Below are positions 1-58,261 of a DNA stretch of 64,000 nucleotides, in pieces. Both the position numbers and the translations under genes were made by a program. Below the pieces are notes generated by a model. That model was not told where the DNA came from and made no database searches. It saw only the letters and a list, made by a program, of their open reading frames with translations. How positions within the stretch are numbered: position 1 is the first letter of the stretch; every line of letters starts with the position of its first letter. This DNA is from a virus, in the IMG/VR virus record IMGVR_UViG_3300037512_001384, positions 6,442-70,441 of that record; one strand, written 5' to 3'.

Positions 1-567
1 CAGGTCGCTCAGTTCCAGATTATGACCCGTGGCTTGATTCAGCTCGCCATACGTAGCGGTCAGTACCTCAGAATAACCAACGCCGTTGTACATGAGGGAG
101 AGCTTGTGAAGTATAACCCCTTCACTGATGACTACGAGTTTGACCCGACCAAACGCACAAGCGACAAGGTTATCGGTTATATGGCATACTTCCGTATGGT
201 TGACGGATATGAGAAGTATTTCTATATGACTGAGGCTGAAGTCCTGGCTCATGGCAAGAAATACTCCAAGTCTTTCAACTCCGGTCCTTGGAAGGACAAC
301 ACAGAGGCTATGTGTCTCAAGACCGTGATGAAGTTGCTCCTCTCCAAGTTCGGTATCCTGTCTATCGAGATGCAGCGTGCCATCAAGTATGACCAGGGTA
401 TCGCTAAGGGTGACTTCACTCAGATGGGTAGCGTCGAGGAGATTGACAATGCTGAAGTGGAATATGTCGATAACCCGGAAGAGAACAACAAGCCCGTTGA
501 AGAGAGCGCAGACAACAAGAAGGAAAGGATGCGCAAGGAAAAGAAGGAGAAACCGGAAATGCCGTAA
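1..567 (+). CDS. recT: RecT-family single-strand annealing protein (N-terminus upstream of window)
   Basis: Frame 1 is open from base 1. The core GYMAYFRMVDGYEKYFYMTEAEV..GPW..MCLKTVMKLLLSKFGILS resembles conserved RecT blocks. Charged K/E tail. Confidence 0.8.
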   Translation, partial: QVAQFQIMTRGLIQLAIRSGQYLRITNAVVHEGELVKYNPFTDDYEFDPTKRTSDKVIGYMAYFRMVDGYEKYFYMTEAEVLAHGKKYSKSFNSGPWKDNTEAMCLKTVMKLLLSKFGILSIEMQRAIKYDQGIAKGDFTQMGSVEEIDNAEVEYVDNPEENNKPVEESADNKKERMRKEKKEKPEMP

Positions 568-570
568 CGC

Positions 571-2658
571 ATGAACAAATACAGCAGCTACACTCCCGAT
601 GAGATGGATAACCTCCTGTCAGGTTATCTCATCGATTCATGGTCATACAGTAAGGTCAACACCTTCGCCCGTAACGAGAAGCAGTTTGAGAAGAACTTCG
701 TCTATCTCGAACCGGACAAACGCAGTATAAGCTCCATTGCCGGTAACGCCTATCACGAGGCGTTGAGGGTTTTCTTCATGGGCTACAATGAAGGTGCGAA
801 GAAGCCGGATCTTGTGGAGTTGTCAACGGTGGCATATAACTACATAGATGATGTTGACGCTAACACATGGAAGCTCAGTGATACTTATCCTTCCGTTGAC
901 CAGGCAAGAGAGCAATGTATCAAGATTGTCACTCTTCTGATTCAGAACTTCTGCGGCGAGTATGGTATCTATACCGACCATATAGCTGAGGTTCTGTCCG
1001 TCGAGGTCAAGGAAGAGTCTCTGGTGGTCTGCAACGGTGTCGATATCCCATTACCTCTGCATTATATTGCAGACCTTGTGATACGCACAAAGGACGGAAA
1101 GGTTGTCATCATAGACCATAAGAGCAAAAGCGCCTATACCGGTGACGATGAGGTCTCTCTTGTGCATGGTCAGCAGGCTATCGCTTACGTACTCGGATAT
1201 GAGCAGCATGACGAGAAGGATGACCGCCATGTAGATGAGGTCTGGTTCATCGAGAATAAGTATTCCAAGAACAAGAACGGCAGCGAGCAGCTTCGTCTGC
1301 ACCGTTTCGTGATGGATGAGGACTCACGCAAATTGCATGAGTATTATCTCTATCAGCCTCTTCGTCGTATGATAGAAGCTGTGGCTGATCCTGACTACAT
1401 CTACACAATCAACGCATCTGACAACCTTGCTGACAAGGCAGAGCTTTACGAGTTCTCGGCACGCACTCTGATTGCAGAGGTTGATGACTTCCCCAATATC
1501 CCGGAAAGGAAGAAGCCTCTGATAGAGAAACGTCAGCGTAAAATCAAGGACTCCAGCATCGCGATGATTTCACCGCGAGTCATACGTTCATTCAGAAAGA
1601 ATGCAGCATCGTTTATTACTTTCGACTATTCGCATAGCAATATGACAAACAAAGAAAAAATCGAACATAAGTTCCGTACCTTCGGCAAACAGGTTCAGGT
1701 AAGCCATGAGATAGAAGGATTCTCATGTAACACCTATCTGTGTGAGGTGGCGGCAGGCATACCCATCGCTTCTCTTAAGACATACGCGAAGGATATCGCT
1801 TACGCTCTTGATGTTCCGTCAGTACGTGTCGCTCAGGACCTGGTGGTACATGAAGGACGTTCTTATCTTTCCATAGAAGTGAGTAAGAAGAGTTCCGAGA
1901 TACTGGCATGGGATGCCAAATATCTTGAGGGTCATCGCATACCTCTCGGACTTGACAACTTCAAAGAGCCGGTAATATGGGATTTGGAGAACCATTCCAC
2001 TCCGCACATGCTTGTCTGTGGTGCTACCGGTTCCGGAAAATCCGTTCTTATCCGCTCTACTATCGCCTATGCCCTTCTCGCCAAGATGCGCGTTATCATC
2101 ATGGATCCCAAATACGAGTTCTCTGCATTCTCAGACAGATGTGAGGTTCATTCGGATATCGCAGACATAGAGAAACGCATGAAGGAACTTGTTGAGGAGA
2201 TGCAAGCCCGCAAGGGTACTTTCGGCGGTCTCACACTGATAGTATTCGATGAGTTCGCTGATGCAGTTTCATCGGCTCGTTCCGGCAAGGAGCTTGACAT
2301 CAGAGAGGAAGTGACAGTCGGTGAGTATAAGGATGGCAGACCGAAGAAGGAGTGGATTGTCACAGGACGTGACAAGAGTCTGGAAGAGAACCTGCAGATG
2401 CTCCTGCAGAAAGGTCGTTCTCTTGGTTATCGCATCCTGTCTGCCACACAGAGAGCTTCAGCCAAGGTTATCACAGGTGACGCCAAGGTCAATTTCCCAT
2501 GTATCTGTTGTTTCAGAGTACCCAAGGCTCTTGACAGTAAGGTTGTGATTGATGAGGATGGCGCACAAGCCCTTGCCGGTAACGGTGACGGACTGTTCAA
2601 GTCGCCTGAGTACATGGATCGTCTCGTGCGATTCCAGGGATTCTTCTATAAAGGATAA
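571..2658 (+). CDS. PD-(D/E)XK (RecB/Cas4-like) nuclease fused to an FtsK/HerA-type P-loop ATPase
   Basis: N-half: IADLV..VVIIDHKSK followed by HGQQAIAYVLGY (D..DxK plus QxxxY). C-half: Walker A CGATGSGKS, Walker B LIVFDEFAD, FtsK signature SATQRASAKVITGDAKVNFP. Starts 4 nt after the recT stop. Confidence 0.7.
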   Translation: MNKYSSYTPDEMDNLLSGYLIDSWSYSKVNTFARNEKQFEKNFVYLEPDKRSISSIAGNAYHEALRVFFMGYNEGAKKPDLVELSTVAYNYIDDVDANTWKLSDTYPSVDQAREQCIKIVTLLIQNFCGEYGIYTDHIAEVLSVEVKEESLVVCNGVDIPLPLHYIADLVIRTKDGKVVIIDHKSKSAYTGDDEVSLVHGQQAIAYVLGYEQHDEKDDRHVDEVWFIENKYSKNKNGSEQLRLHRFVMDEDSRKLHEYYLYQPLRRMIEAVADPDYIYTINASDNLADKAELYEFSARTLIAEVDDFPNIPERKKPLIEKRQRKIKDSSIAMISPRVIRSFRKNAASFITFDYSHSNMTNKEKIEHKFRTFGKQVQVSHEIEGFSCNTYLCEVAAGIPIASLKTYAKDIAYALDVPSVRVAQDLVVHEGRSYLSIEVSKKSSEILAWDAKYLEGHRIPLGLDNFKEPVIWDLENHSTPHMLVCGATGSGKSVLIRSTIAYALLAKMRVIIMDPKYEFSAFSDRCEVHSDIADIEKRMKELVEEMQARKGTFGGLTLIVFDEFADAVSSARSGKELDIREEVTVGEYKDGRPKKEWIVTGRDKSLEENLQMLLQKGRSLGYRILSATQRASAKVITGDAKVNFPCICCFRVPKALDSKVVIDEDGAQALAGNGDGLFKSPEYMDRLVRFQGFFYKG

Positions 2659-2663
2659 TCAAT

Positions 2664-3068
2664 ATGCAAGCAACTGGTAAGATTATAGCAATACTTGAAC
2701 CGCGTTCTGGCATTGCAAAGGCATCGGGCAATCCTTGGTTTATCCAAGGGTTCGTGCTTCAGACCGAAGAGCAATATCCGAAAAAGATACCATTTGAGGT
2801 ATCCGGTGAGGATAGAGTCAAGAACTTCAATATCCAAAAGGGTGAGACGCTGACCATCAGCTTCGATATTGACGCGAAAGAATGGAATGGAAAATGGATT
2901 CCTTCTATTCGATGCTTCAATATATCTCGTGGTGACGGTCAGCAGCAAGCAGCTCCGGCTCAAACGCAGAATCAGCAACCCGCACAACATGCTGCACCTG
3001 CACCGCAGGCACCGCCACCTGATCCGTTAGAGACCCAGGGAGGTGCAGATGATGATGTCCCCTTCTGA
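2664..3068 (+). CDS. DUF3127-type single-stranded DNA-binding protein with Q/P-rich linker and acidic DDDVPF tip
   Basis: MQATGKIIAILEPRSG..GNPW..QYPKKIPFEV..FDIDAKEWNGKW matches the Bacteroidota DUF3127 OB-fold pattern. The C-terminus ends DDDVPF, like the bacterial SSB tip. Confidence 0.75.
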   Translation: MQATGKIIAILEPRSGIAKASGNPWFIQGFVLQTEEQYPKKIPFEVSGEDRVKNFNIQKGETLTISFDIDAKEWNGKWIPSIRCFNISRGDGQQQAAPAQTQNQQPAQHAAPAPQAPPPDPLETQGGADDDVPF

Positions 3069-3133
3069 TTAGGATATGTCATTCATAGCCCGGTTAGGCT
3101 TGGTTGTCTCTCCGGGCACTAAAAGTGTTTTAC

Positions 3134-3418
3134 ATGAACGCAATAGATTTCACTCAGAAATACTCCTATGAGTTCATCCTTAAGCCTCCTCAAACCCTCG
3201 ATTATGAGGAATACAATGTTGATTGGTTCCTCACCCCTCGCGGTGACATGATGTGCAGGCGCGGCGGTTATGAAATATCGTCAGACATTCTGAACCGCCA
3301 ACACTGGCTGTGGTTTCTTGCAGAAAAACGTTGGTTTGACGCCAACACATTTCTTCCCGCCTATTTTGAGGCTTGTCGCAGAGCTGGGATAGAGAAAATT
3401 GAGATGAGGATAAGGTAA
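3134..3418 (+). CDS. hypothetical protein
   Basis: ORF-track ORF trimmed to the first ATG (MNAIDF). Preceded by hairpin GCCCGG..CCGGGC. Confidence 0.4.
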   Translation: MNAIDFTQKYSYEFILKPPQTLDYEEYNVDWFLTPRGDMMCRRGGYEISSDILNRQHWLWFLAEKRWFDANTFLPAYFEACRRAGIEKIEMRIR

Positions 3419-3424
3419 TTAACA

Positions 3425-4258
3425 ATGAAAGATTCATTTGTTTTTCATAAAGACTGGTACTTAGCCTTAAAAGGGTTAGACGTTCAAGACAAAGTTGAGG
3501 TCTATGAAGCTATAATGAGCAAAATATTTGATGGTGTAGATAAGAAACTTTCGCCTGTTGCACAGATGGCAATGAATTTTATTTCGCCACAAATTGAAAG
3601 GGATGTTGAACGTTATAATTCCATTTGTGAGCAACGCAAACTATTTGGTAGTAAGGGCGGTATAGCAAAAGCTACCAAAAGCTACCAAAAGGTAGCAAAA
3701 GGTAGCAAAAGCAAGCAAAAGGTGGCAAGTGTAGCTGATAATGATAATAATATATCATCTTCTACTAACGTAGAATCTGATAATGATATTATAGATATAG
3801 AAGTAAAAGATAAATCTTTTCCTTCTAAGAAAAAAAATAAATTATTTATACCGCCTACATTAAACGAAGTAGAGGCGTATGTAAAAGAAAAAGGCTATCA
3901 TTTCAGCGCCAAGGCATTCTTTGACTATTACGAAGCGGATGACTGGCATTACGGCAAAGGCAGTAATAGAACAAAGATATCGAACTGGAAGCGCTGTTGT
4001 GCCACATGGGAGGAGCGGCGTACTACAAGTAATAATATACCTCGTGAACCCGCATCGTTGTTTGATAACCATACTCCCGAACCGGAAGACGAACAGACTT
4101 TATTACAGAAAGCATACGAAGAACTGAACGACACCCAGGAGGCTGAGATATACGGAATGGTCCCCTATGAGTTTCACATGCTGAATGAGAACGGCAAGAA
4201 ATATTGGCGCGAAGTTTACAAGGAAAAGATGCTTGATTGGATCAAGAGCAACAGATGA
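3425..4258 (+). CDS. putative replication initiator / replisome organizer
   Basis: The N-terminal domain (FHKDWY..RKLFGSKGG) and the W-rich C-terminal block (FFDYYEADDWHYGKG..ISNWKRCCATWEERR) resemble phage replisome-organizer proteins. The central linker is encoded by iteron-like repeats plus an AT-rich tract. Confidence 0.45.
   Translation: MKDSFVFHKDWYLALKGLDVQDKVEVYEAIMSKIFDGVDKKLSPVAQMAMNFISPQIERDVERYNSICEQRKLFGSKGGIAKATKSYQKVAKGSKSKQKVASVADNDNNISSSTNVESDNDIIDIEVKDKSFPSKKKNKLFIPPTLNEVEAYVKEKGYHFSAKAFFDYYEADDWHYGKGSNRTKISNWKRCCATWEERRTTSNNIPREPASLFDNHTPEPEDEQTLLQKAYEELNDTQEAEIYGMVPYEFHMLNENGKKYWREVYKEKMLDWIKSNR
3661..3730. repeat. seven phased 10-bp units each ending AAAA (iteron-like array inside the organizer gene)
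   Basis: tatagcaaaa gctaccaaaa gctaccaaaa ggtagcaaaa ggtagcaaaa gcaagcaaaa ggtggcaagt. GCTACC and GGTAGC are inverted relative to each other. Confidence 0.85.
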
Positions 4259-6150
4259 GCGACAATATTCTTTATGTAGAGGATTTCAGACACGTCTTAG
4301 GCAGCAGGTCATCAGGTAACATAAAAACCTTCTGTCCTTTCTGCCATGAGAATCGTGGAAACAAGAGGGATAAATCCCTTTCGATAAACTGCGCGACCCT
4401 GGCATATAACTGCCATTATTGCGGTGCGAGCGGTTATCTGAAATCCCGGCATGAGGAAATGATGCGGAGAATAGACAGGGAAACAAGACAGATGTCCAAG
4501 ACTTATCGCAAACCCTCGGTCAAGCCCAACCTTCAACCTAAGCTCAATGCGGACATGGTTGAGTATTTCAAAGGGCGCGGCATCAGCGAGAAGACACTTC
4601 TTGAGGCGAAGGTCACAAAGGAGAATTTCTTTTTCCCGCAAGACAATTGCAAGCGCGGATGTATCGCTTTCAACTACTATGTTGATGACGAGCATATCAA
4701 CACCAAATATCGCACAAGGGACAAGCATTTCGCATTCATTGCCGGTGCCAAGGTAGTCCCCTATAACATAGACAGCATAAGAGAGAGCGCATTCAAGAAG
4801 GGTGAAAAGAAAATCTGCATCATCACTGAAGGTGAAGCGGATACTCTCACTTATATCGAATGCGGCTATAAGCATGTCATATCCATGCCGTCCGGTGCTA
4901 ACACCAATCTGGAATGGATGGATGACTTCACCGAATCCCACTTTGATAAACTTGAACTGATTTATGTATCGACAGACAGTGACAAGAAGGGTGTTGAAGC
5001 CAAGAATGAGATAGTACGAAGGTTTGGAGCTGAAGTATGTAAGATAGTTGAGTATCCGGAAGACTGCAAGGATATAAACGAGGTTCTTGTCAAATATGGA
5101 CCGGAGAAGGTAAAGGAATGCTTCGAGGGTGCTGCGGATATTAGAATCCAAGGTGTCGAGGAACTTGTTGACATAGAGTCAGACCTTGACAACCTGTTTA
5201 CTTCGGGACTTCAAAAGGGAGTAACCCTGGGATTGGAGGATATGGATAAACTTCTGTCCTTCAATACCGGAATGGTGACGGTCGTTACAGGAATCCCTTC
5301 GCACGGCAAAACCCAATGGTTGAATTTCGCTCTGATCAGACTCAATATCCTTCACTCATGGAAGGTGGCGTTCTTCTCTCCTGAGTTCTATCCTGTAGCG
5401 CTGCATATATCCCAAATCATAGAGACGCTTGGAGGTAAAAGGTTCTCATCCCAGAACTATACGCCTCAGACTTACGGCATCCTGAAGGAGTATGTCAACA
5501 AGAATTTCTTTTGGGTGGATCCTGATGACACGGATATAAGCTCAGTCTTGGACAGAGCCAAGTTCCTCATCCGCAAGAGAGGTATCAAGGCGTTTGTGAT
5601 TGACCCTTTCAATTCGCTGACAGACGAGAAGCGAACGATATACAAGCAGGATGAATATATTTCGGACTTCCTGCAGAAGATACGATGGTTCGCCAGGAAG
5701 TATGACGTTGCAATGTTCATCGTCATGCATCCCACCAAACAATACAAGCAGGATAACGGCTTATATCCGGTCTGTGACCTGTACTCATGTAAGGGTGCAT
5801 CTGAGATATACGACAAGGCTGATATCGGCATCACCGTATGGAGAAACGAGCAGGGTAATTACGGTGAGGTGCATGTGACCAAGATGAAGTTCCGTCACAT
5901 GGGACAGAAAGGACATGACACTTTCGTCTATAACTTCAATAACGCCCGGTTCGTTGAGATTCCCACTATGGACGCGAAGCGTGTGGCTCCCGACATGGAT
6001 AAAGTGAAGTGGGATAACAGCAATTATGTAATTGAGAATATCAAGACGCAGCAGAATCAGCAGGAATTGGATTTTGGAGCGGAGCAGCCGGAAACACCAC
6101 ATAATGAAAAACCCTTTGATGCGCCGATAGACGAAGATATCCCGTTCTGA
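4255..6150 (+). CDS. bifunctional primase-helicase (zinc finger + TOPRIM + DnaB/RecA-like helicase, T7 gp4-like)
   Basis: CPFC..CHYC zinc motif, TOPRIM ICIITEGEADTL and DSDKKG, Walker A GIPSHGKT. Start taken at the ATGA overlap with the preceding stop. Ends DEDIPF. Confidence 0.85.
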   Translation: MSDNILYVEDFRHVLGSRSSGNIKTFCPFCHENRGNKRDKSLSINCATLAYNCHYCGASGYLKSRHEEMMRRIDRETRQMSKTYRKPSVKPNLQPKLNADMVEYFKGRGISEKTLLEAKVTKENFFFPQDNCKRGCIAFNYYVDDEHINTKYRTRDKHFAFIAGAKVVPYNIDSIRESAFKKGEKKICIITEGEADTLTYIECGYKHVISMPSGANTNLEWMDDFTESHFDKLELIYVSTDSDKKGVEAKNEIVRRFGAEVCKIVEYPEDCKDINEVLVKYGPEKVKECFEGAADIRIQGVEELVDIESDLDNLFTSGLQKGVTLGLEDMDKLLSFNTGMVTVVTGIPSHGKTQWLNFALIRLNILHSWKVAFFSPEFYPVALHISQIIETLGGKRFSSQNYTPQTYGILKEYVNKNFFWVDPDDTDISSVLDRAKFLIRKRGIKAFVIDPFNSLTDEKRTIYKQDEYISDFLQKIRWFARKYDVAMFIVMHPTKQYKQDNGLYPVCDLYSCKGASEIYDKADIGITVWRNEQGNYGEVHVTKMKFRHMGQKGHDTFVYNFNNARFVEIPTMDAKRVAPDMDKVKWDNSNYVIENIKTQQNQQELDFGAEQPETPHNEKPFDAPIDEDIPF

Positions 6151-6688
6151 TCAAGACATACTTTATAGGCATATTATATTTCTTAGAGCCATGCATTATG
6201 GTATCCTTGCGACCGTCATAACCGGTTGCTATCTCCTGTATGGCTTCATGGTCAAAGAAATACTTCTCCTGTTTTGACATCAGGAATATATATTCATGTG
6301 CCTTCGTACAGCGGTCTTTGATGCTTTCGGGCTGCGGATTCAGCTTATGCCAGATGATGTCATTTCTCAGACGGAATCCGATACGGTCTCTTAGTGCGAA
6401 AGCCGCCATCCAGGGAATACCGATAAGACTTTTTGCATTGTCATAGCTATCTCCGAGGTTCAGCCAGAGCGTTCCTTCCGGTTTAAGAACGCGAAACACT
6501 TCCGTGAATACTTCGGTGAGTCTGTCGATATACTCTTCTGGTGACTTCTCCAGACCTATCTGACCGTCAATACCGTAGTCTCGCAGATTGAAATATGGCG
6601 GTGAGGTGACACAGCAATCAACGCAGTTGTCAGGAAGGCTTTTCATTCCGGTGAGGCAGTCTTCATTGAAAACTTTGTTGATTTCCAT
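6041..6688 (-). CDS. N-terminal half of a beta-class N4/N6 DNA methyltransferase (SPPY motif IV), separated from its 3' half by inversion
   Basis: MEINKVFNEDCL..DCCVTSPPYFNLRDY..LWLNLGDSY..NDIIWHK..HEYIFLMSK. Methyltransferase similarity stops at the repeat (6163-6175). The rest of the ORF is read-through antisense to the primase-helicase gene. Confidence 0.75.
   Translation of the reverse strand: MEINKVFNEDCLTGMKSLPDNCVDCCVTSPPYFNLRDYGIDGQIGLEKSPEEYIDRLTEVFTEVFRVLKPEGTLWLNLGDSYDNAKSLIGIPWMAAFALRDRIGFRLRNDIIWHKLNPQPESIKDRCTKAHEYIFLMSKQEKYFFDHEAIQEIATGYDGRKDTIMHGSKKYNMPIKYVLIRTGYLRLSAHQRVFHYVVFPAAPLQNPIPADSAAS
6163..6175. repeat. left inverted repeat of invertible segment 1 (TTATAGGCATATT)
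   Basis: Perfect reverse complement of 6692-6704. An imperfect extension brings it to about 20 bp. Confidence 0.9.
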
Positions 6689-6691
6689 TAC

Positions 6692-6704
6692 AATATGCCT
6701 ATAA
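6692..6704. repeat. right inverted repeat of invertible segment 1 (AATATGCCTATAA)
   Basis: Reverse complement of 6163-6175. Contains the ATG (6695) of the downstream ORF, in the same codon phase as the N-half. Confidence 0.9.
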
Positions 6705-7108
6705 TGCCTTCGGGTAACAGGCAGACGATGGCTACGCACGGGCATCAGCGATGGAGGTTCAAGAACCTTCAGGATGATGGACAGCAACCCAATTCGATGC
6801 ATATCAGACGTGCTGCCGGATTGCCGGACCAGCAATATCCGGTCAGAAACAAAAGGGATGTATGGAGTGTAGCCACCAAACCTGAGAAGGCGGCTCATTT
6901 CGCTGTCTATCCCGAAGAGCTCATCAGACCTTGCATCCTTGCCGGATGTCCGAAAGGTGGCCTGGTGCTTGACCCGTTTATGGGAAGTGGCACGACAGCC
7001 AGGGTCGCCCGTAAGTACAATCGCAACTTCATAGGGTATGAACTGAACCCTGAATATATCAAGATTATCAATCAGAAGACGGTGGTGACACCGGACTTGT
7101 TCTCATAG
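6695..7108 (+). CDS. C-terminal half of the same beta-class DNA methyltransferase (AdoMet-binding motif I)
   Basis: RNKRDVWSVATKP..AHFAVYPEELIRPCI..VLDPFMGSGTTARVA..GYELNPEY. No motif IV on this strand. Confidence 0.75.
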   Translation: MPIMPSGNRQTMATHGHQRWRFKNLQDDGQQPNSMHIRRAAGLPDQQYPVRNKRDVWSVATKPEKAAHFAVYPEELIRPCILAGCPKGGLVLDPFMGSGTTARVARKYNRNFIGYELNPEYIKIINQKTVVTPDLFS

Positions 7109-7114
7109 AAACCT

Positions 7115-7141
7115 ATTGTTTAACTAAATATCTATAGTATG
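7115..7141 (+). promoter_or_regulatory. plus-strand copy of the conserved leader motif (ATTGTTTAACTAAATATCTATAGTATG)
   Basis: Same motif and ATG spacing as the roughly 30 minus-strand cassettes at 27-45 kb. Confidence 0.5.
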
Positions 7142-7648
7142 GCAGGTTTAAGAAGTAGAAGTGGTTTTTGGATGGAAGCAACCATCGAGATCACAGAGAC
7201 AACCCCCAAAGGGTTGCCAAAGACAGTGAGAGAACGCTACACAGTTGAGGCAGCGTCATTCATTGACGGTGAGGAGAGAATCCGCAAGGAGCTCAACTAC
7301 TCCAACCGTCCTATCAAGACCGTGAGCGGTATGTTGCGCCCCAAGTACGGTGAGATTTGTTTCTCTGATGACGCAGCAGCTGAGAACTGGTACAAGGTTA
7401 AGGTTGATATGAAGGAGGAGGTAGAGGTAAGAACCCGTAAGGGTGGCACCCGCACCAAGACCAAGACCGTATCGCACTATTATCTTGTCCAGTCTGACTC
7501 CAACGAGAACGCTCGCAAGGCAATCGGTGACGAGATTTACAAGGGTTCAAACGCCGACTATGAGATAGCCGATGTCGTGAAGACCCGTATCCTGGATGTG
7601 CTGGAGAAGGATAAGCATCTGAAGAGTGCTGAGAAAAAGGAAAATTAA
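7139..7648 (+). CDS. DUF4494-like protein
   Basis: FWMEATIEI..YTVEAASFIDGEERI..WYKVKVDM..YYLVQSDS fits the Bacteroidota DUF4494 pattern. The start is supported by the leader motif. Confidence 0.55.
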   Translation: MAGLRSRSGFWMEATIEITETTPKGLPKTVRERYTVEAASFIDGEERIRKELNYSNRPIKTVSGMLRPKYGEICFSDDAAAENWYKVKVDMKEEVEVRTRKGGTRTKTKTVSHYYLVQSDSNENARKAIGDEIYKGSNADYEIADVVKTRILDVLEKDKHLKSAEKKEN

Positions 7649-7669
7649 CCGTACACCATTTTGTTGTTG

Positions 7670-7712
7670 GAAAGCCCTATGCCGTGCCATTGCGGTGTAG
7701 GGCTTTCTTTTT
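7670..7712 (+). terminator. rho-independent terminator
   Basis: GAAAGCCCTA..TAGGGCTTTC stem followed by TTTTT. Confidence 0.8.
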
Positions 7713-7722
7713 GAGAGAAGGG

Positions 7723-8202
7723 ATGAATACGTATGTAATTACTTTATCACAGACTTTCCCTGTGACACATAAACGCGCCGGTGAGCCCACCGACTTCGAG
7801 CATAAGTTCACCGCCGCGACCCACAAGTGGCTTGACCATTGGTGGAAGCGTCATACCATTCGTGCCAATTACGAATTATGGCGTAAGCGCTTTGAAAAGA
7901 TAGATGCCGGTCAAGCCCAGCTGTCTATACGTCAGTGGTCAGGTAAGCCTTACGCTTCCAAACAGGTTCAACTGGCTGTGCTCACCAAAGCTGACGGCAT
8001 CGGAATACAGAAACTGCAGTTCGATGTTGACAGGGATGGTATGCATTCCTTGAACCTGATAGAGATTGACGGCAAATCCGTAAGCAAGGAGCTTCTGGCA
8101 TATAACGATGGGTTGAAAATTGAGGATTGGATGGAATGGTTCCGTCGGTATGACCTCTCCAAACCTCTGGCTGTAATTCATTTCACAAGCATCAGGTATT
8201 AA
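7723..8202 (+). CDS. hypothetical protein
   Basis: ORF trimmed to MNTYVITL, downstream of the terminator. Confidence 0.5.
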   Translation: MNTYVITLSQTFPVTHKRAGEPTDFEHKFTAATHKWLDHWWKRHTIRANYELWRKRFEKIDAGQAQLSIRQWSGKPYASKQVQLAVLTKADGIGIQKLQFDVDRDGMHSLNLIEIDGKSVSKELLAYNDGLKIEDWMEWFRRYDLSKPLAVIHFTSIRY

Positions 8203-13554: not shown

Positions 13555-14334
13555 ATGGGTACAAAAATAGAGTGGACCAACAAGGTATGGAATCCCGTAT
13601 CGGGCTGCACTAAGGTCAGTGAGGCTTGCCAGAACTGTTATGCTGAAGTGATGGCAAGACGTCTGAGCGGAATGCCTGGCAGCAAGGAGAAATACAAGGA
13701 TGGATTCAAGGTGACGATTCACCCGGAAAGCCTCTATGAGCCTTACAAGTGGAAGAAACCATGCATGGTCTTCGTTTGCTCTATGGGCGACCTGTTCCAT
13801 GATGATGTTCCTATCCAGTTCATTGACGAGGTGATGAACGTGATCAGCGAGAATCCGCAGCACACGTTCCAAATTCTCACCAAGCGGGCTGGAGCGATGT
13901 ATTCATATTTTCAACATGAGGATGTTCCGAAGAACGCATGGCTCGGTGTCACCTGCGAGAGTGCCAAACATTATGACAGGGTGAGTCTTCTCCGTGATAT
14001 TAACCGTGTGAGTCTTCTCACCGATTTCCATAGCAAGACTGTCAAGTTCCTGTCATGCGAGCCTCTGTTGGGTGACATGGCGGATATAAACCTTGACGGT
14101 ATTGATTGGGTGATTACAGGAGGCGAAAGCGGTTCGCGAGCCCGAAGGACACCGATTGAATGGTTTCGGAATCTTCGTGACAGGTGTGTCGAGACCGGCA
14201 CGCCTTTCTTTTTCAAGCAATGGGGTGCGTTCGGCCCGGATGGTATCAAACGCAGCAAATATCTGAACGGTTCTGTACTGGACGGTCAGCAGTGGAAACA
14301 GATGCCACTTATAAAGCAAGACGATAATGATTGA
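13555..14334 (+). CDS. phage Gp37/Gp68 family protein (DUF5131)
   Basis: IEWTNKVWNPVSGCTKVSEACQNCYAEVMARRL N-terminal signature and GGESG block. Contains an in-frame 27-bp duplication (RVSLLRDIN/RVSLLTDFH). Confidence 0.7.
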   Translation: MGTKIEWTNKVWNPVSGCTKVSEACQNCYAEVMARRLSGMPGSKEKYKDGFKVTIHPESLYEPYKWKKPCMVFVCSMGDLFHDDVPIQFIDEVMNVISENPQHTFQILTKRAGAMYSYFQHEDVPKNAWLGVTCESAKHYDRVSLLRDINRVSLLTDFHSKTVKFLSCEPLLGDMADINLDGIDWVITGGESGSRARRTPIEWFRNLRDRCVETGTPFFFKQWGAFGPDGIKRSKYLNGSVLDGQQWKQMPLIKQDDND

Positions 14335-16063
14335 CGAATTAGACAAGCAACTGCAGTATATCAAGACTTGCCCTCACTATACGGTCTTTGCCATAGACCT
14401 TTTCTGTGGCGCGGGCGGTGAAACGACAGGTATTGAACTGGCTATGGTGGATGGTAAGAAATGCGCCAAGGTCATAGCCTGCGTCAACCATGATCCGAAC
14501 GCTATTGCATCTCATGCTGCGAATCACCAATCCGTTCTGCATTATATCGAAGATATACGTACCCTCAACTTAGGCGGATTGGAGCAGTTGACGGAAGCTG
14601 TCCGGACTTTTCATCCAGGTTCATATATCCTGTTGCACGCTTCACTTGAATGTACAAACTTCTCCAAGGCCAAGGGTGGTCAACCACGTGACGCAGACTC
14701 CCGAACTCTGGCTGAGCATCTATTCCGATACATTGAGGCTATCAGACCGGATTATATCCAGATAGAGAATGTGGAAGAGTTTATGTGCTGGGGAGAGCTC
14801 GACAAGAACGGCAAGCCTTTGAGTAAAGACCGGGGTAGCAGTTATGTTCGTTGGGTGAACAACGTCAAACATTATGGGTATGATTTTGACTACAGGTTGC
14901 TTAACGCAGCTGATTTTGGCGCATACACAAGCCGTAAGCGCTTTTTCGGTCTTTTCGCCCGTCATGGATTACCGCTTGTCTTCCCGCATCAGACCTATGC
15001 GAAGAACGGTGACGAAGGTGGGCTTTTCCATCAGTACCGGAAATGGAAACCTGTACGTGAGGTGTTAGACCTGCAGGATGAAGGGGAAAGCATCTTTGGT
15101 AGAAAGAAACCGTTATGTGAAGCTACATTGGAGCGCATCTATGCAGGATTGGTGAAGTTTGTGGCAGGAGGTAAGCAGAAATGTGACGCCTGGATCCTAA
15201 AGTACAACTCCATGAATAAAGATAGAAGCCATAATGCACCCTCTATCGACGAGCCCTGTCCTACTGTTGCTGTGCAAAACAGATTAGGTTTATGCAAGTG
15301 TAATTTCCTGAGTCTGTATTATGGTGGCGCAGAGCATAACCAATCTATTGAAGAGCCAGCGGGTACTGTGACAACCAAAGACCATCATGCTTTCCTTTCG
15401 GTTCATTATGGACACGGTTGTAATAGAGATATTGACAAGCCTTCACCTACTGTGACATGCCAGGACAGAATTGAGCTTATTTCAAGCCAGTTCTTTGCCA
15501 ATGAGTATAGTGGCGGAGGACAGCTTTCTGATATAGAGAAACCTTCACCCGCTATACTTACCAAACCGAAACAGCATTTAGTCACGGCTAAACGCTGGCT
15601 GGCGAATACCAACTTCAAGAATGTGGGTAGCAGCATAGATTCTCCAGCACCGGTAGTGACAGCCAACTATAAGTACCACTATCTGATGAATCCGCAGTTT
15701 GCATCTGCAGGAGGTTCCATAGACAAGCCCTGTTTCACATTGATAGCCCGGATGGACAAGATGCCTCCGTATCTGATAAGCACAGAGAGCGGAGAAGTCG
15801 GAATCGCTGTATATGATTCGGATTCATCAATGACGTGCAAGGTCAAAGAGTTCATGGCTGCATACGGTATAGTGGATATCAAGATGCGTATGCTGAATGT
15901 GGGTGAACTTAAACGTATCATGGGCTTCCCTGATGATTATGTGCTTATCGGCACTCAGGCAGAGCAGAAGAAATATATAGGCAATGCCGTGGAGGTAAAT
16001 ATGTCCCGTATGTTATGTGAAGCACTTGCTACTAAATTAAACCTCACAAGACAAGCAATATGA
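14327..16063 (+). CDS. DNA (cytosine-5) methyltransferase with an expanded, repetitive target-recognition region
   Basis: Motif I DLFCGAGG, catalytic-region variant ECTNFS, IENVEEF, RKRFFG, GNAVEV. Six I(D/E)xPxPT-like repeats between motifs VIII and IX. Confidence 0.85.
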   Translation: MIDELDKQLQYIKTCPHYTVFAIDLFCGAGGETTGIELAMVDGKKCAKVIACVNHDPNAIASHAANHQSVLHYIEDIRTLNLGGLEQLTEAVRTFHPGSYILLHASLECTNFSKAKGGQPRDADSRTLAEHLFRYIEAIRPDYIQIENVEEFMCWGELDKNGKPLSKDRGSSYVRWVNNVKHYGYDFDYRLLNAADFGAYTSRKRFFGLFARHGLPLVFPHQTYAKNGDEGGLFHQYRKWKPVREVLDLQDEGESIFGRKKPLCEATLERIYAGLVKFVAGGKQKCDAWILKYNSMNKDRSHNAPSIDEPCPTVAVQNRLGLCKCNFLSLYYGGAEHNQSIEEPAGTVTTKDHHAFLSVHYGHGCNRDIDKPSPTVTCQDRIELISSQFFANEYSGGGQLSDIEKPSPAILTKPKQHLVTAKRWLANTNFKNVGSSIDSPAPVVTANYKYHYLMNPQFASAGGSIDKPCFTLIARMDKMPPYLISTESGEVGIAVYDSDSSMTCKVKEFMAAYGIVDIKMRMLNVGELKRIMGFPDDYVLIGTQAEQKKYIGNAVEVNMSRMLCEALATKLNLTRQAI

Positions 16064-20211: not shown

Positions 20212-20736
20212 ATGAAACGTGATGTGTGGAAAGACGTAAAAGGCTATAAGGGTCTTTATAAGATAAACCGTGAAGGTGTTGTCATCAACAAACGAGGCAA
20301 GGTGGTAGGGACAGAGTTGTCGCAACGAGGTTACGTGCGCGTCAGACTGTATAAGAACAACGTCAAGAAGAATCATAAGGTTCACCGCTTGGTAGCCCAG
20401 GCTTTCATCCCCAACCCCAGACGTCTGTCACAGATAGACCATATCAATGGTGATAAGACGGACAACAGAGTCCAGAACCTTCGATGGATGGACAACAGAG
20501 AGAACAACAACGCATTCAAGAGTGAACATCTGAACAAGCAGCCGGTGGTAATCATCGGCTGTTTTGGTGAAATACTGAGATACTTCTCTTCATTACGCGA
20601 AGCAGCATCTGCCATAGGTGTCAGCAGGCATGGTATTTCAGCCGCCTGCCGTGGATTACAGAAGACATCAGGCGGTTATTCATGGCGTTTCGTGACTGAA
20701 GCTGAATTTGCTTTGTTCAACAGGAAGGCTGTATGA
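20212..20736 (+). CDS. HNH homing endonuclease (NUMOD4 + HNH)
   Basis: WKDVKGYKGLYKINREG, then HRLVAQAF..IDHINGDKTDNRVQNLRW..NN. Confidence 0.85.
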   Translation: MKRDVWKDVKGYKGLYKINREGVVINKRGKVVGTELSQRGYVRVRLYKNNVKKNHKVHRLVAQAFIPNPRRLSQIDHINGDKTDNRVQNLRWMDNRENNNAFKSEHLNKQPVVIIGCFGEILRYFSSLREAASAIGVSRHGISAACRGLQKTSGGYSWRFVTEAEFALFNRKAV

Positions 20737-20770
20737 CATATACGGCCCGGAGAAAAACAATATCATTCTA

Positions 20771-21745
20771 ATGTATCGAAAAAAGAAACCGGCAGGTTTT
20801 GATGAACGTCTTCAGTGGTCTATCAATTTGTTGAAGAAAGCAGAAAAACTCGCTTTGCAATATGATCCTGATGACGGATTCTATTTAGCCTTCTCAGCAG
20901 GCAAGGATTCCCAAGCATTATATCACATCGCCAAACTTGCAGGTGTCAAGTTTCAGGCTCACATGAACTTTACGAGTATTGACCCTCCAGAGGTTATTCG
21001 CTTCTGTCGCGAACATTATCCTGATGTCATAACTCATGCACCCGAGGACAGCATCTACAATATTGCCGTAAACGGGAAATATCTGCTGCCTTCACGTATC
21101 ATTAGATGGTGCTGTGCCATTCTTAAAGAGACTGGAGGTGCCGGTACGGTCTGTCTTACAGGTGTACGCAGACAGGAAAGCATCAGACGCTCCAAACGTA
21201 ACAGCGTTGAAGTTAGCAACAGCTCCTTCTCCGGGGACCTCGATGCCTTCGAGACGTGGAGAAAAGAGAAGATTGCCAAGAAGATTCAGCATCTCAACCA
21301 GGACCAATTCAGTGAACAAGACGAGGAACAAATCAGATGTATCGGCGGCAAGGATAAAATCATTGTCAATCCGATAATAGACTGGTCTGAGTCTGATGTC
21401 TGGTATTTTCTCAACGAAGTTGTGAAAGTGCCTCACTGCTCGCTATATGACAGAGGATATAAACGTATCGGATGTATCTGCTGTCCTATGGCAAATTATA
21501 AGCAGAAACTCATCGAATTGGCGGATTACCCCCATGTCAAGCGCAACTGGATAAATGCCATCAAGCGGATACGCGAGCAGGGTATCGCAAAGAATATCCT
21601 GACAGAGAACTATTTCGGCAATGGTACGGAAGACGAGATATGTGAGAACATCTTCCAATGGTGGATCAGCGGGAAATCCTATGACGAATGGTATGCTGAG
21701 ACATTCCTTCAGCAAAGGATTGATTTTGGAGAGGAACAACAATAG
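20771..21745 (+). CDS. PAPS-reductase-family (PP-loop ATPase) protein
   Basis: PP-loop FSAGKDS, C-terminal IGCICCP cysteine cluster. ORF trimmed to MYRKKKP. Confidence 0.8.
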   Translation: MYRKKKPAGFDERLQWSINLLKKAEKLALQYDPDDGFYLAFSAGKDSQALYHIAKLAGVKFQAHMNFTSIDPPEVIRFCREHYPDVITHAPEDSIYNIAVNGKYLLPSRIIRWCCAILKETGGAGTVCLTGVRRQESIRRSKRNSVEVSNSSFSGDLDAFETWRKEKIAKKIQHLNQDQFSEQDEEQIRCIGGKDKIIVNPIIDWSESDVWYFLNEVVKVPHCSLYDRGYKRIGCICCPMANYKQKLIELADYPHVKRNWINAIKRIREQGIAKNILTENYFGNGTEDEICENIFQWWISGKSYDEWYAETFLQQRIDFGEEQQ

Positions 21746-26667: not shown

Positions 26668-27510
26668 TTATGTGCCGGTGAAGAACCCCATACCGCTCAA
26701 GTCGAGATTATCGGCATCCACGCAGATGTAACGTGATGTCATGTTCTCGTTCTTGTTGTGGTTCATCAGGGCGCAGATGACGGCACGCGGCACACCGCGC
26801 AGAGTCAGGTTGGTGGCGAAGGATCTCCGGGCCGTATGACTCCCGACATACTCGTACTTGGGTCGCGTCTGCGTCTTACCGTGATAGAATATCTTGGTTT
26901 CCTGACTGATACCGCATCGGCGACAGATACGTTTGATGACATCGTTATAAACGGCTCTGTTATGTTCGCCGGTGGGCTTGTACTGCAGGTAACGCATGAG
27001 GTTGCGATGTATCGGTATGGAGCTCTCCACCTTCGTCTTCTGACTCACATAACACAGTCTGCCGTCAATGATGTTATGCTCGGTGAATGACTTGACATCG
27101 GACGTCCTGGCACCGCAGTAGCACTCGATGAGGAAAGCCGCCTTGATGTCCCGTTCCGTGTCATTATGGGGAACATATCGTTCGATACGCTCTATCTCCT
27201 CTTCCGTGAGATAGACGTTCTGTGACGGCACTCTCTTAGCCTTCAATTCCTTCCCGGGATTCTTACAGGGGAATAAATTCTCATCCAGATAAGCGGAAAG
27301 GAAAGCCTTCAATACGGCGAGATAGGTACATGCCGTATTACCGGCTACGTTGTCACAGATATTATCCCTCATCTCGGACAGGTTAAGCGTCGTGAGGTCG
27401 CTCCACTGCACCTCCTGAACGCCTATCGCATCACGCATATACCGAAGGATATGCGCATAGCTGGGTTGTCTTCTGACAAACTCCTGCTCAAAACTTAAAA
27501 TTCCGTTCAT
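26668..27510 (-). CDS. tyrosine recombinase (phage integrase family)
   Basis: CGARTSDV (Arg I), HTARRSFATNL (HxxR), MNHN.. and the terminal ..MTSRYICVD (catalytic Tyr). Confidence 0.85.
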   Translation of the reverse strand: MNGILSFEQEFVRRQPSYAHILRYMRDAIGVQEVQWSDLTTLNLSEMRDNICDNVAGNTACTYLAVLKAFLSAYLDENLFPCKNPGKELKAKRVPSQNVYLTEEEIERIERYVPHNDTERDIKAAFLIECYCGARTSDVKSFTEHNIIDGRLCYVSQKTKVESSIPIHRNLMRYLQYKPTGEHNRAVYNDVIKRICRRCGISQETKIFYHGKTQTRPKYEYVGSHTARRSFATNLTLRGVPRAVICALMNHNKNENMTSRYICVDADNLDLSGMGFFTGT

Positions 27511-27696
27511 ATCATTTGGTTTTTATTGATTACGACGAGTGAAGCCGGACAATATCCCATCGTCCGGCTCCTGATTAACCTAAATACTTATGTGGTAAAA
27601 ACGTACACACGAAAGTATGTGTAAACATGTTGACCACACTGCTACGACTATGGTAATCTTGCTGCCGGAGGACGTTTTACCGTCATCCGGCATTGT

Positions 27697-29073
27697 TTAC
27701 AGGCGCAGTGTACCCGCTCTTGCCGCCTCACAGCGTCTCAGCACCTCCTTACGGTCACGTATGAGTATCCTGGCTCTCATATCCATACCTTCGCCCGTGG
27801 GCTTATCCAGGACACCTATCGCAACCATCGTGAGGAAGTCCTCGATTGCCATACGGCGTGTAAGAAGGAAGGGGAACATACCGAAGTTACGTGGCGTCAA
27901 CTCTGTCCTGCCTTGTGACTCCTGCAGGAAGAGGCATTCGGGTTGTCCCTTGATAGTAACGGTGACACATGGCGCATCCTCCTGTCCCGGGATGTCAAGC
28001 ACGGAACCGGTAAATGTACCTCTGCAGACAAGGTTGAGCAGTATAGCATCCTCGATGTACTCCGTATCTGCATATCCGCATTGTACGCGCACGTCATCAA
28101 TGCCGTCTGAGTAGAGCATATCACCCTTACCCATCAGGTCCTCGGCACCGGTATGGTCGAGGATGACACGCGAATCAATACCCGATGCGACGCGGAACGC
28201 GATACGTACCGGGAAGTTCGCCTTGATGTTTCCTGTCACGATGGTCGCCGACGGACGTTGCGTGGCTATGATCATGTGGATACCGACGGCACGGGCTTTC
28301 TGTGCGATACGGCATATCATACGCTCCATATCCTTCCCGGCTGTCATAATAAGGTCGGCATACTCGTCTATGACCACGATGCAGTAACGCATGTAGTCTT
28401 CACCGTTGAGCTTGTCATTATACTCTTTGATGTTACGTACTCCTTTCTGCGAGAGAAGGGTGTAACGGTACTCCATGAGGTTAATGACACGCTGCAGGAT
28501 AGCGACAGCATCCTCTGTGGTCGTGGCTATGTCATCGGCGAGATACTTGTGCCAGAGAGGAGCGTAGATGTTGAGCTCAACCTGTTTGGGGTCGATGAGC
28601 ACCAACTGCATCTCTTCCGGTGTGCGCTTGCTCATCAGTGAGAGCAGCAGCATGTTCAGGCATACCGACTTACCTTGACCGGTCGCACCGGCAATAAGCA
28701 GGTGCGGCATCTGTGTGAGGTCACGGATGAAGAGTTCTCCCTGTACCGTCTTGCCTATGGCGCATGGAAGTGCCATCCTGCAGGACTCGTAATCGACATG
28801 ATGCAGAACGCTGTCCATGTGTACTATCTGACGTTGGAAGTTGGGAACCTCAATGCCAATCGTACCGCCTGCGAGCGGTCCCATGATGCGTACCGACTCC
28901 GTACCGACCGCCAAGGCAAACTCATCAGCGAGTCTGCGTACACGTGTCATATTCACACCCATATCCGGTCTGAACTCATACAGGGTGACGCTGGGTCCTT
29001 TCGTGACTCTCCAGCTCAGCGGTTCAATCTTATGAACCCTGAGCACCTGTTCTAACTTGTAAGTGTAATCCAT
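27697..29073 (-). CDS. FtsK/SpoIIIE-family DNA translocase-like ATPase
   Basis: Walker A AGATGQGKS, Walker B VVIDEYADL, ATQRPSATIVTGNIKANFP..GAEDLMGKGDML. Start set at MDYTYK by the cassette. Confidence 0.85.
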   Translation of the reverse strand: MDYTYKLEQVLRVHKIEPLSWRVTKGPSVTLYEFRPDMGVNMTRVRRLADEFALAVGTESVRIMGPLAGGTIGIEVPNFQRQIVHMDSVLHHVDYESCRMALPCAIGKTVQGELFIRDLTQMPHLLIAGATGQGKSVCLNMLLLSLMSKRTPEEMQLVLIDPKQVELNIYAPLWHKYLADDIATTTEDAVAILQRVINLMEYRYTLLSQKGVRNIKEYNDKLNGEDYMRYCIVVIDEYADLIMTAGKDMERMICRIAQKARAVGIHMIIATQRPSATIVTGNIKANFPVRIAFRVASGIDSRVILDHTGAEDLMGKGDMLYSDGIDDVRVQCGYADTEYIEDAILLNLVCRGTFTGSVLDIPGQEDAPCVTVTIKGQPECLFLQESQGRTELTPRNFGMFPFLLTRRMAIEDFLTMVAIGVLDKPTGEGMDMRARILIRDRKEVLRRCEAARAGTLRL

Positions 29074-32094: not shown

Positions 32095-32706
32095 TCAGAA
32101 CGGAAGAGGAATGTCCTCGATGATTTCATTCATAACCTCTTTCTCGAACTTCTCCAACTCCTCGATGTAGTCATAGTTGCCTTCGTCTTCATCCTTGCCG
32201 CCCAACCTCTTCTCAAATTCAACAGCTTTCTTGATGAAGTAAGCGGCTTTATCTCTGGAATCCAACCAAGGGTAACTTCCGCTTTTCTCAATCTTGGCGA
32301 TGTCTTCAGCGAGGTCTGCTACCAGATGTACGGCATTCTCCATCTCCTTGTAGGTGTATGTACGCACTTCGTCTTCTCCCTTGACCTCTATCTCAGGCAG
32401 ATAATCCATGATAAAATCAATGTGCGAATAGTGTACATCACCGAGTCCAATCTCAATGTCTGACACAGAACCGTCATGCAGATTGACTGACATACGGATG
32501 TTACCTTTGGACTCCACCCATATTTTCATCACATCTACGTCGCCTACATACTCGCAATCGTCAATGCTGGCTGTTATGATGGGGTATTCTATACCGGAAT
32601 CCTTCCATGTAAAACTGCCTCCCAGCTTTTCCAGGCACTTGCGCAATTCCCTTTGTTCCTTTACGGCTATTTCAGCATACGCTTTGTAAAATGATTCATG
32701 TTTCAT
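32095..32706 (-). CDS. hypothetical acidic protein
   Basis: Cassette-defined start. Confidence 0.55.
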   Translation of the reverse strand: MKHESFYKAYAEIAVKEQRELRKCLEKLGGSFTWKDSGIEYPIITASIDDCEYVGDVDVMKIWVESKGNIRMSVNLHDGSVSDIEIGLGDVHYSHIDFIMDYLPEIEVKGEDEVRTYTYKEMENAVHLVADLAEDIAKIEKSGSYPWLDSRDKAAYFIKKAVEFEKRLGGKDEDEGNYDYIEELEKFEKEVMNEIIEDIPLPF

Positions 32707-45982: not shown

Positions 45983-46025
45983 TTCGATACCCAGGTATTG
46001 GTTTGTTTAGTTATTGTTTTTATAT

Positions 46026-58107: not shown

Positions 58108-58261
58108 ATTTCTTATACATTTTTGACAAAGATATTTCAGAACAAGTGTCACATACGGTGTATTTCATTGGTAAAATGAAAGATTACCAAAATAAAAGCG
58201 CTTAGGAAAACACCAATCACTATAATTTGGCGAAAAATCTTTACAAATTATAGCAATTGGT

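Follow-up and report, generated by a model that had tools for sequence, protein, structure and literature searches.

A 64,000-nucleotide stretch of the IMG/VR virus record IMGVR_UViG_3300037512_001384 (hereafter the window, meaning the whole stretch analyzed) derives from a prophage of gut Bacteroidales and carries, directly behind the recombination gene recT, a gene in which a nuclease and an FtsK-type DNA motor are fused into one polypeptide. The element is a tailed phage and temperate, as indicated by an integrase gene in locus L001 and by prophage copies within chromosomes. A second, stand-alone FtsK gene lies elsewhere in the window, beside a gene for a tyrosine recombinase. The positions of these genes and of their domains, motifs and residues are collected in Table 1.

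A preliminary description of the window, made from the sequence alone, had proposed that a nuclease N-terminal half continues into an FtsK ATPase, and this proved correct. The gene is one open reading frame (ORF), and its product matches three Pfam families above their cut-offs: PDDEXK_1 (PF12705; amino acids (aa) 23-247, 39.1 bits, cut-off 22), FtsK_alpha (PF17854; aa 356-437, 31.3 bits, cut-off 22.9), and FtsK_SpoIIIE (PF01580; from aa 457, 49.6 bits, cut-off 24). The Walker A, Walker B, and ATQR..ITG motifs named in that description are likewise all present.

Table 1. Positions of the fusion gene, its parts, and other features in the window (nt, nucleotides)
Feature	Position (nt)	Strand	Details
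recT, 3′ part	1..567	+	last 188 codons, start lies before the window; Pfam RecT 93.5 bits; phrog_148
Nuclease-FtsK fusion gene	571..2658	+	single open frame, 695 aa plus stop
PD-(D/E)XK nuclease core	571..1311	+	aa 1-247
Nuclease residues G58..H62 (motif I) and E145			
Nuclease residue D168	1072-1074		
Nuclease residues D182-H-K184	1114-1122		
Nuclease residues Q202..Y206	1174-1188		
Helical extension of nuclease module	1312..1593	+	aa 248-341; AlphaFold models
Disordered inter-module linker	1594..1629	+	aa 342-353, 12 residues; predicted local distance difference test (pLDDT)
FtsK alpha domain	1630..1890	+	~aa 354-440; PF17854; Foldseek to FtsK motors
FtsK beta (RecA-like ATPase) domain	1891..2655	+	aa 441-695
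Walker A	2020-2043		GATGSGKS, aa 484-491
Walker B	2236-2253		LIVFDE, aa 556-561 (D560-E561)
Beta-hairpin insertion after Walker B	2266-2373		aa 566-601, ~30 residues
Arginine finger R616	2416-2418		in QKGR
Sensor T-Q627-R	2446-2454		within ATQRAS..ITG, aa 625-636
DUF3127/phage single-strand DNA-binding (SSB)-like protein	2664..3068	+	PF11325 86 bits; phrog_4932 'single strand DNA binding protein'
DUF6291 gene	3425-4258		downstream of fusion; profile match
Primase-helicase, Toprim/DnaB-type	4237-6150		downstream of fusion; profile match
Tyrosine recombinase, Xer-like size	26668..27510	-	280 aa; PF00589 Phage_integrase 47.6 bits
Palindrome, 11-5-11	27543..27569	.	AGCCGGACAAT n5 ATCGTCCGGCT; between second FtsK and recombinase
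Second, stand-alone FtsK	27697..29073	-	458 aa from ATG; identical to database protein P0335

The nuclease residues in Table 1, from G58 to Y206, are invariant among 57 close relatives, and four of them persist in divergent fused and stand-alone representatives (D168, D/E182, and K184 each in 79/79, Q202 in 78/79). The label RecB/Cas4-type that had been given to this half survives in its first part only. Fold and PDDEXK_1 match are RecB-like, but the sole cysteines of aa 1-345 are C116, C128, and C154, none of them conserved, so the four-cysteine iron-sulfur (Fe-S) cluster of the Cas4/AddB/Dna2 type is absent. In the motor half, conservation was read from an alignment of 49 rows, comprising 47 divergent fused representatives and the two FtsK proteins of the window; K490, E561, R616, and Q627 are each kept in 48 rows and D560 in 47, with one Glu. 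R616 aligns with the QKAR arginine of Pseudomonas FtsK, in which the arginine finger is R620 (PMC7321959).

In the window fusion, the chain continues for only 20 residues past the GDG motif (14-22 in nearly all fused representatives, against 138 in the second FtsK), and the fusion therefore has no gamma domain. Its N-terminus is modeled as a soluble nuclease with no membrane anchor, and the protein falls outside the cellular FtsK equivalog NF007615 of NCBIfam, scoring 82 bits against a cut-off of 1566. The beta-hairpin insertion has no counterpart in the second FtsK, which is of the canonical type; the spacing from Walker B to Q613 varies from 21 to 88 residues across the fused family, compared with 20 in the second FtsK. 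Judged by their residues, the nuclease and motor modules both look catalytically competent. No curated family of Pfam, PHROGs, NCBIfam, or PADLOC takes in the fusion, and no NCBIfam or PADLOC model spans both halves.

The full AlphaFold model (mean pLDDT 84.8; predicted template modeling score (pTM) 0.50) falls below a pLDDT of 50 only at aa 342-353, and the fusion is accordingly modeled as two rigid modules with a flexible tether between them. The helical extension of the nuclease module reaches ~aa 300 in stand-alone relatives too, which match aa 1-300 of the query. The nuclease half shares its fold with solved nucleases of the RecB family (RecB/Dna2/RecE-like), and the structure-comparison list comprises Dna2 (17.1), the AdnA nuclease (16.3), the putative exonuclease 3l0a (16.3), RecE (13.8), MGME1 (13.7), Cas4 (12-12.5), AddA (11.7), and lambda Exo (8.5), every one of them a DNA-end-processing enzyme. 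In Foldseek, the C-terminal half matched the FtsK motor structures 6t8o, 6t8b, 2ius, and 2iut (E 1e-19 to 3e-20, 25-27% identity, TM 0.6-0.68 of the target), the first three as the DNA-bound FtsK motor, followed by TcpA, then EccC/EssC, and then HerA (E ~1e-6).

The fusion is a real, widespread, and uncharacterised protein of Bacteroidota prophages. An identical 695-aa protein is encoded on four independent contigs, over 120 clusters in the database, with 57-84% identity, share its length (669-708 aa) and its three domains, and full-length fused ORFs of 668-714 aa occur at 48-84% identity on hundreds of independent contigs. A relative is encoded by 222 IMG/VR viral contigs and was full-length in 80/80 loci fetched; in bacterial genomes taken at one per species, 83 stretches encode a relative, ~60 of them full-length. 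The hosts span the Bacteroidota, including Bacteroides, Parabacteroides, Prevotella, Muribaculaceae, Dysgonomonas, Tenacibaculum, Flavobacterium, Chryseobacterium, Chitinophaga, Pedobacter, and Flavihumibacter, and several copies of the fusion gene lie within complete chromosomes. An exhaustive HMMER search with the nuclease half (aa 1-345) returned 131 cluster representatives at the 50% identity level, 50 with the FtsK half (down to ~25% identity) and 28 that stand alone (249-451 aa). Conserved residues run through the junction between the two halves (P335, F341, A345, F348, I349, and M358).

Other collections returned parts of the protein at most. Positions 1-8000 of the window had no megablast match among 50,697 GenBank phages; tblastn of the fusion against GenBank phages found only FtsK halves at ≤30% identity, none with 80% coverage, and 72,556 plasmids likewise yielded only FtsK halves at ≤30% identity and no full-length fusion. 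The BFVD viral structures hold no match to the full-length architecture. A literature search, whose coverage did not extend to the superfamily survey of Iyer et al. 2004, found no description of the fusion and returned only HerA-NurA and defence fusions of a restriction endonuclease (REase) with HerA/FtsK of the DndH type.

Two natural variants demonstrate that the nuclease stands as a module of its own, to which the motor was added. Locus L003 (6001-8057) is split into genes for the nuclease (357 aa) and for FtsK (328 aa), which share an ATGA overlap. Relative to the fused form, the reading frame shifts by one base immediately ahead of the Met that corresponds to M358. The FtsK gene starts at this Met, and the split point lies just past the linker. 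In locus L004, the same nuclease has a NUMOD-like C-terminus in place of FtsK and again follows RecT. An obligatory internal start at M358 in the fusion was considered and is not supported: M358 is invariant among close relatives of the fusion, and distant fused representatives have either M or L there (19 vs 14). Position 358 looks like a structural hydrophobic residue.

The gene upstream of the fusion is the most informative part of its surroundings. In 84 viral loci and in L001-L004, the ORF directly upstream encodes 255-307 aa and often overlaps the fusion gene or lies a few bases from it. Across the 84 viral loci, this slot is filled by RecT of phrog_148 (14), RecT of phrog_561 (7), Erf (1), and phrog_3657 (62), and across 64 genome loci by RecT clades (26), phrog_3657 (15), Erf (2), and others (21), the last group including Sak4-like phrog_1366/124 (7), Bet/RecT-like phrog_252/2780 (3), Erf-like phrog_1097 (3), and a few unassigned proteins. 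The position is thus occupied by an annealing protein or by a protein of unknown kind in 84/84 viral loci and in most of the 64 genome loci, and at least seven unrelated families fill the slot: two RecT clades, two of Erf, Bet-like, Sak4-like, and phrog_3657. The arrangement extends to distant fused members, with RecT upstream in L161 and a weak RecT-like protein in L160. Unrelated annealing families swapped beside one constant neighbour are the signature of the exonuclease partner in a recombination module, and the role of RecT exonuclease partner foreseen in the preliminary description is strongly supported by this synteny with many annealing families.

The commonest occupant of the slot, phrog_3657, is an uncharacterised family of ~280 aa (L006:5159-6001 and 61 other IMG/VR loci, plus 15 genome loci). 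Its hhalign probability against alignments of RecT, Erf, Bet-like, and Sak4-like proteins is below 3%, and it has no sequence match in the PDB. It is a candidate for a new family of single-strand annealing proteins.

The upstream proteins also share a C-terminal tail. Among 104 distinct upstream proteins, drawn from all of the families with phrog_3657 included, 98 have the ending [M/L][P/L]-COOH, compared with 11/1111 other ORFs of ≥100 aa in the same loci. The commonest form ends in [D/E]-M-P, and the three of these other ORFs with a [DE][ML]P ending in fact also lie upstream of the fusion, at loci that are truncated. RecT of the window ends ...KPEMP (PEMP = nt 553-564). Because the tail is kept whether the genes overlap or are spaced (ccg taa cgc atg in the window), and with varied codons, it is a feature of the protein. 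The tail is also present on the upstream protein of L004 (...APVLP), where the nuclease has no FtsK, and is absent from the neighbours of two more distant stand-alone nuclease relatives. It is probably a docking peptide, and its partner would be either the fusion or a shared host factor. Contacts of annealing proteins with the short C-terminal tails of SSB matter for function (10.1101/2020.04.14.041095, PMC13490951, PMC5928155).

Further genes of the region belong to recombination and replication. The DUF3127 SSB-like gene lies in the same recombination/replication operon as the fusion. In L001, where the full recT gene encodes 270 aa, genes for an endolysin, a 378-aa integrase, an HTH_17 protein, and RusA lie just upstream of recT. 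The window also encodes a terminase large subunit, an SPP1-type portal, and a major capsid protein, and since the element has its own terminase large subunit, the FtsK-type proteins are not its packaging ATPase.

Some other features of the window stand apart from the fusion. SSB-like acidic C-terminal tips occur on several proteins of this one phage, namely the DUF3127 protein (...DDDVPF), the Toprim/DnaB-type primase-helicase (...DEDIPF), and an unrelated 203-aa protein at 32095-32706 (-) (...DIPLPF). The 930-aa terminase large subunit (55360-58152 (-)) contains a match to Hom_end, of homing-endonuclease/intein type, at aa 283-345, flanked by regions with terminase-type matches, which suggests that the packaging ATPase gene carries an intein or homing-endonuclease insertion. 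A second primase-helicase of D5_N/DUF5906 type, a 578-aa C5 cytosine methyltransferase, a protein resembling phosphoadenosine phosphosulfate (PAPS) reductase, and an ArdA-type anti-restriction protein are encoded at 46014-47483, 14327-16063, 20708-21745, and 39005-39997 (-), respectively.

From the observed architecture, catalytic residues, and synteny of the fusion, the interpretation favored here, with some reserve, is that the protein is an ATP-driven DNA-end resection enzyme that acts as the exonuclease partner of a phage annealing protein, RecT in this element. The motor would assemble as a ring, a hexamer by analogy with FtsK, on a duplex end of phage or target DNA, and would use ATP to pump this duplex so as to feed nuclease domains hung from the alpha face of the ring. 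These nucleases would digest one strand, probably the 5′ strand by analogy with RecE, lambda Exo, and Dna2. The 3′ single strand would then be coated by the DUF3127 SSB-like protein and annealed by RecT, and the [D/E]-[M/L]-[P/L] tail of the unrelated upstream proteins would dock them to the fusion or to a common host factor.

Several points weigh against an end-resection enzyme of this kind. Its nuclease and ATPase activities, ring assembly, polarity, and substrate are all deduced rather than observed, and with a pTM of 0.50 the geometry between the modules is undefined. FtsK-type motors move on intact duplex without unwinding it, which leaves the choice of the cut strand unexplained. In 62 of the 84 gut-phage loci, the upstream partner is phrog_3657, which has no detectable similarity to annealing proteins, and at such loci position and the shared tail are all that argue for an annealing partner. 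The tail itself could reflect a host-specific contact, such as with the SSB of Bacteroidota, instead of contact with the fusion.

A more ambitious synthesis is doubtful as a whole. In it, six FtsK motor subunits, each bearing its own RecB-type nuclease, would form a ring-shaped 'DNA-processing chamber' that resembles, by analogy, the ATPase-hydrolase rings of the Lon and FtsH type but acts on DNA. Ends would be resected at FtsK-like speed while bound proteins are displaced, and at least seven unrelated annealing families would be recruited via a [D/E]-[M/L]-[P/L]-COOH docking peptide. If this were true, the fusion would establish a new class of phage recombination systems that are modular, driven by ATP, and specific to Bacteroidota, and phrog_3657 would be identified as a new annealing-protein family.

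Other functions have been weighed for the fusion. It could be a nuclease of host takeover or competitor killing that reels in and destroys DNA of the host chromosome, of plasmids, or of rival phages, either to scavenge nucleotides or for exclusion, with its adjacency to RecT an incidental result of early-operon clustering. A processive pump with a nuclease would make an efficient DNA shredder, and PHROGs places FtsK-like phage proteins in the category 'moron, auxiliary metabolic gene and host takeover'. However, at each locus examined the gene comes right after the annealing slot, across at least seven partner families, and its start codon often overlaps the preceding stop codon. The upstream proteins have a dedicated C-terminal tail in common, and a temperate lifestyle, evident from the L001 integrase and the chromosomal prophage copies, is contrary to wholesale destruction of host DNA. 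Such a takeover function is unlikely.

There is similarly little likelihood that the fusion instead processes intermediates of replication or packaging, through concatemer trimming, debranching, or the restart of collapsed forks. Its place within a block of genes for RusA, an SSB-like protein, DUF6291, and a primase-helicase would suit this role, and recombination and replication are coupled in many phages, but the strict neighbour of the fusion is the annealing protein, not RusA or the helicase. A replication role also overlaps with end resection and does not exclude it.

Prophage defence of the 'HerA/FtsK capture' type is very improbable. Here, as in DndH or SspH, the motor would intercept invading DNA and a restriction-type nuclease would cut it. 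Fusions of a REase with HerA/FtsK, some of them with an FtsK alpha domain, are known in DndH and related systems (PMC10853773), and the PADLOC models SspH and mads8 match the ATPase part of the fusion (E ~1e-16). These matches span only aa 456-692, not the nuclease, and the fusion has neither the other domains nor the partner genes of DndH; it is surrounded by genes of recombination and replication rather than by sensors or modification enzymes, and the full-length protein is absent from the 72,556 plasmids. The idea that an assembly or sequencing error joined two genes, for which a check had been advised at the outset and to which the separate, overlapping genes of L003 in different frames lend some color, is refuted, because the identical protein recurs on the four independent contigs and full-length fused ORFs at 25-84% identity recur in hundreds of independent assemblies with conserved junction residues.

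The second FtsK is a different kind of protein. It matches FtsK_alpha and FtsK_SpoIIIE in Pfam (169 bits) and is a soluble alpha-beta protein with no membrane domain. Comparison with the cellular FtsK structure PDB 2iuu gave E 6e-78, against only E 3e-28 for the fused motor, and the two FtsK modules of the window share 26% identity (BLASTP E 2e-23). The second FtsK being far closer to cellular FtsK than to the fused motor, the two genes are not recent or close paralogues; the earlier account had rightly placed a second FtsK next to the recombinase and had overstated its relationship to the fusion in calling it paralogous. The second FtsK gene lies 186 nt upstream of the recombinase gene, on the same strand. 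The C-terminal ~70 aa may form a gamma-like winged helix. A search of IMG/VR for close relatives of this protein found none.

A functional link between the second FtsK and the recombinase, also anticipated in that account, is likely from their conserved pairing and is borne out at least at the level of gene order. The pair recurs in three related loci (L085-L087, on contigs of 47-110 kb), where an FtsK of 456-459 aa is followed by a recombinase of 278 aa, at 46-59% identity. The recombinase of the window matches the XerA, XerD, and XerC equivalogs weakly, at 24-38 bits against cut-offs of 220-335. At the corresponding location, L086 and L087 (6480-6508) have an 11-6-11 palindrome that aligns with the one between the two window genes and whose two arms show a matching change. 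L085 lacks it, making the palindrome positionally conserved in three of four loci. Possible roles are those of a terminator, an operator, or a recombination (core) site. A further palindrome lies at 27663-27692; the intergenic palindromes have arms of 11-12 bp and spacers of 5-6 nt.

The pair may be tentatively regarded as a phage-borne, FtsK/Xer-like system that resolves genome multimers. Multimer resolution is its most economical reading, and integration, inversion, or transfer are possible alternatives. Like FtsK-XerCD/dif, the pair combines an alpha-beta motor close to cellular FtsK with an adjoining tyrosine recombinase of Xer size, in a conserved pairing. Weighing against the comparison, the pair has a single recombinase, a motor with no membrane domain, and no established dif-like site, and the profile match of the C-terminal region to the FtsK gamma domain (2j5p) is not significant (E 0.44).

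Annealing-protein/exonuclease pairs of phages are the basis of recombineering, for which tools in Bacteroidota are still limited. If the fusion is the native partner of these annealing proteins, recombineering with double-stranded DNA in Bacteroides, Prevotella, and Flavobacterium may need both the fusion and matching tails on the annealing protein. The fusion would also be the first FtsK-clade double-strand DNA pump recruited for end resection and a bacterial-virus counterpart of archaeal HerA-NurA, with the 'ring pump plus nuclease' solution having arisen independently. The shared tail offers a directly testable hypothesis of protein docking, and the conserved FtsK-recombinase pair suggests that some large phages bring their own Xer/FtsK-like resolution system.

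Coupling of end resection to a motor, which had been thought unusual, is in fact common to RecBCD, AddAB, AdnAB, Dna2, and HerA-NurA. What is unusual is the use of an FtsK-clade ring translocase as the motor and its location within a phage annealing-protein/exonuclease module. The closest match to the probable way of working of the fusion is HerA-NurA of archaea and Deinococcus, in which ends are resected for homologous recombination by a ring translocase, a member of the FtsK-HerA superfamily, that forces duplex DNA into the nuclease attached to it (PMC3326311, PMC9960219, PMC12977600). This likeness is a functional analogy only. HerA-NurA consists of two polypeptides, whereas the fusion is covalent and has one nuclease per motor subunit. 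HerA falls in another clade and lacks an FtsK alpha domain, whereas the motor of the fusion is of the FtsK clade (Foldseek E 1e-20 to FtsK vs ~1e-6 to HerA) and has no match to HerA in NCBIfam. NurA is not a PD-(D/E)XK nuclease, unlike the RecB-type nuclease of the fusion, and HerA-NurA is partnered by Mre11-Rad50/RadA, whereas the fusion is phage-borne and partnered by an annealing protein.

In AddAB, AdnAB, RecBCD, and Dna2, superfamily 1 helicase motors unwind DNA and track along single strands, whereas the motor of the fusion is a double-strand pump of the ring type; the lack of an Fe-S cluster is a further contrast with the helicase-nuclease resection enzymes. The classical exonucleases of RecE/RecT, lambda Exo/Red-beta, and YqaJ/YqaK are small, ATP-independent, and toroidal. 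The fusion resembles them in adjoining an annealing gene in the same orientation and in having interchangeable partner families, and differs in its 340-aa ATPase motor with intact FtsK residues. DndH/SspH likewise unite a restriction-type PD-(D/E)XK nuclease and a HerA/FtsK ATPase in one polypeptide, in some cases along with an FtsK alpha domain (PMC10853773), but these proteins have ~1700 aa, eight domains, and DndF/G partners in defence operons, whereas the fusion has 695 aa and two modules in a phage recombination operon, and the SspH model of PADLOC covers only its ATPase part (aa 458-692). In its way of working, the fusion is thus like HerA-NurA, AddAB, AdnAB, or Dna2 while being a member of none of them, and it is best explained as an FtsK-powered variant of the known motor-plus-nuclease theme of DNA-end resection.

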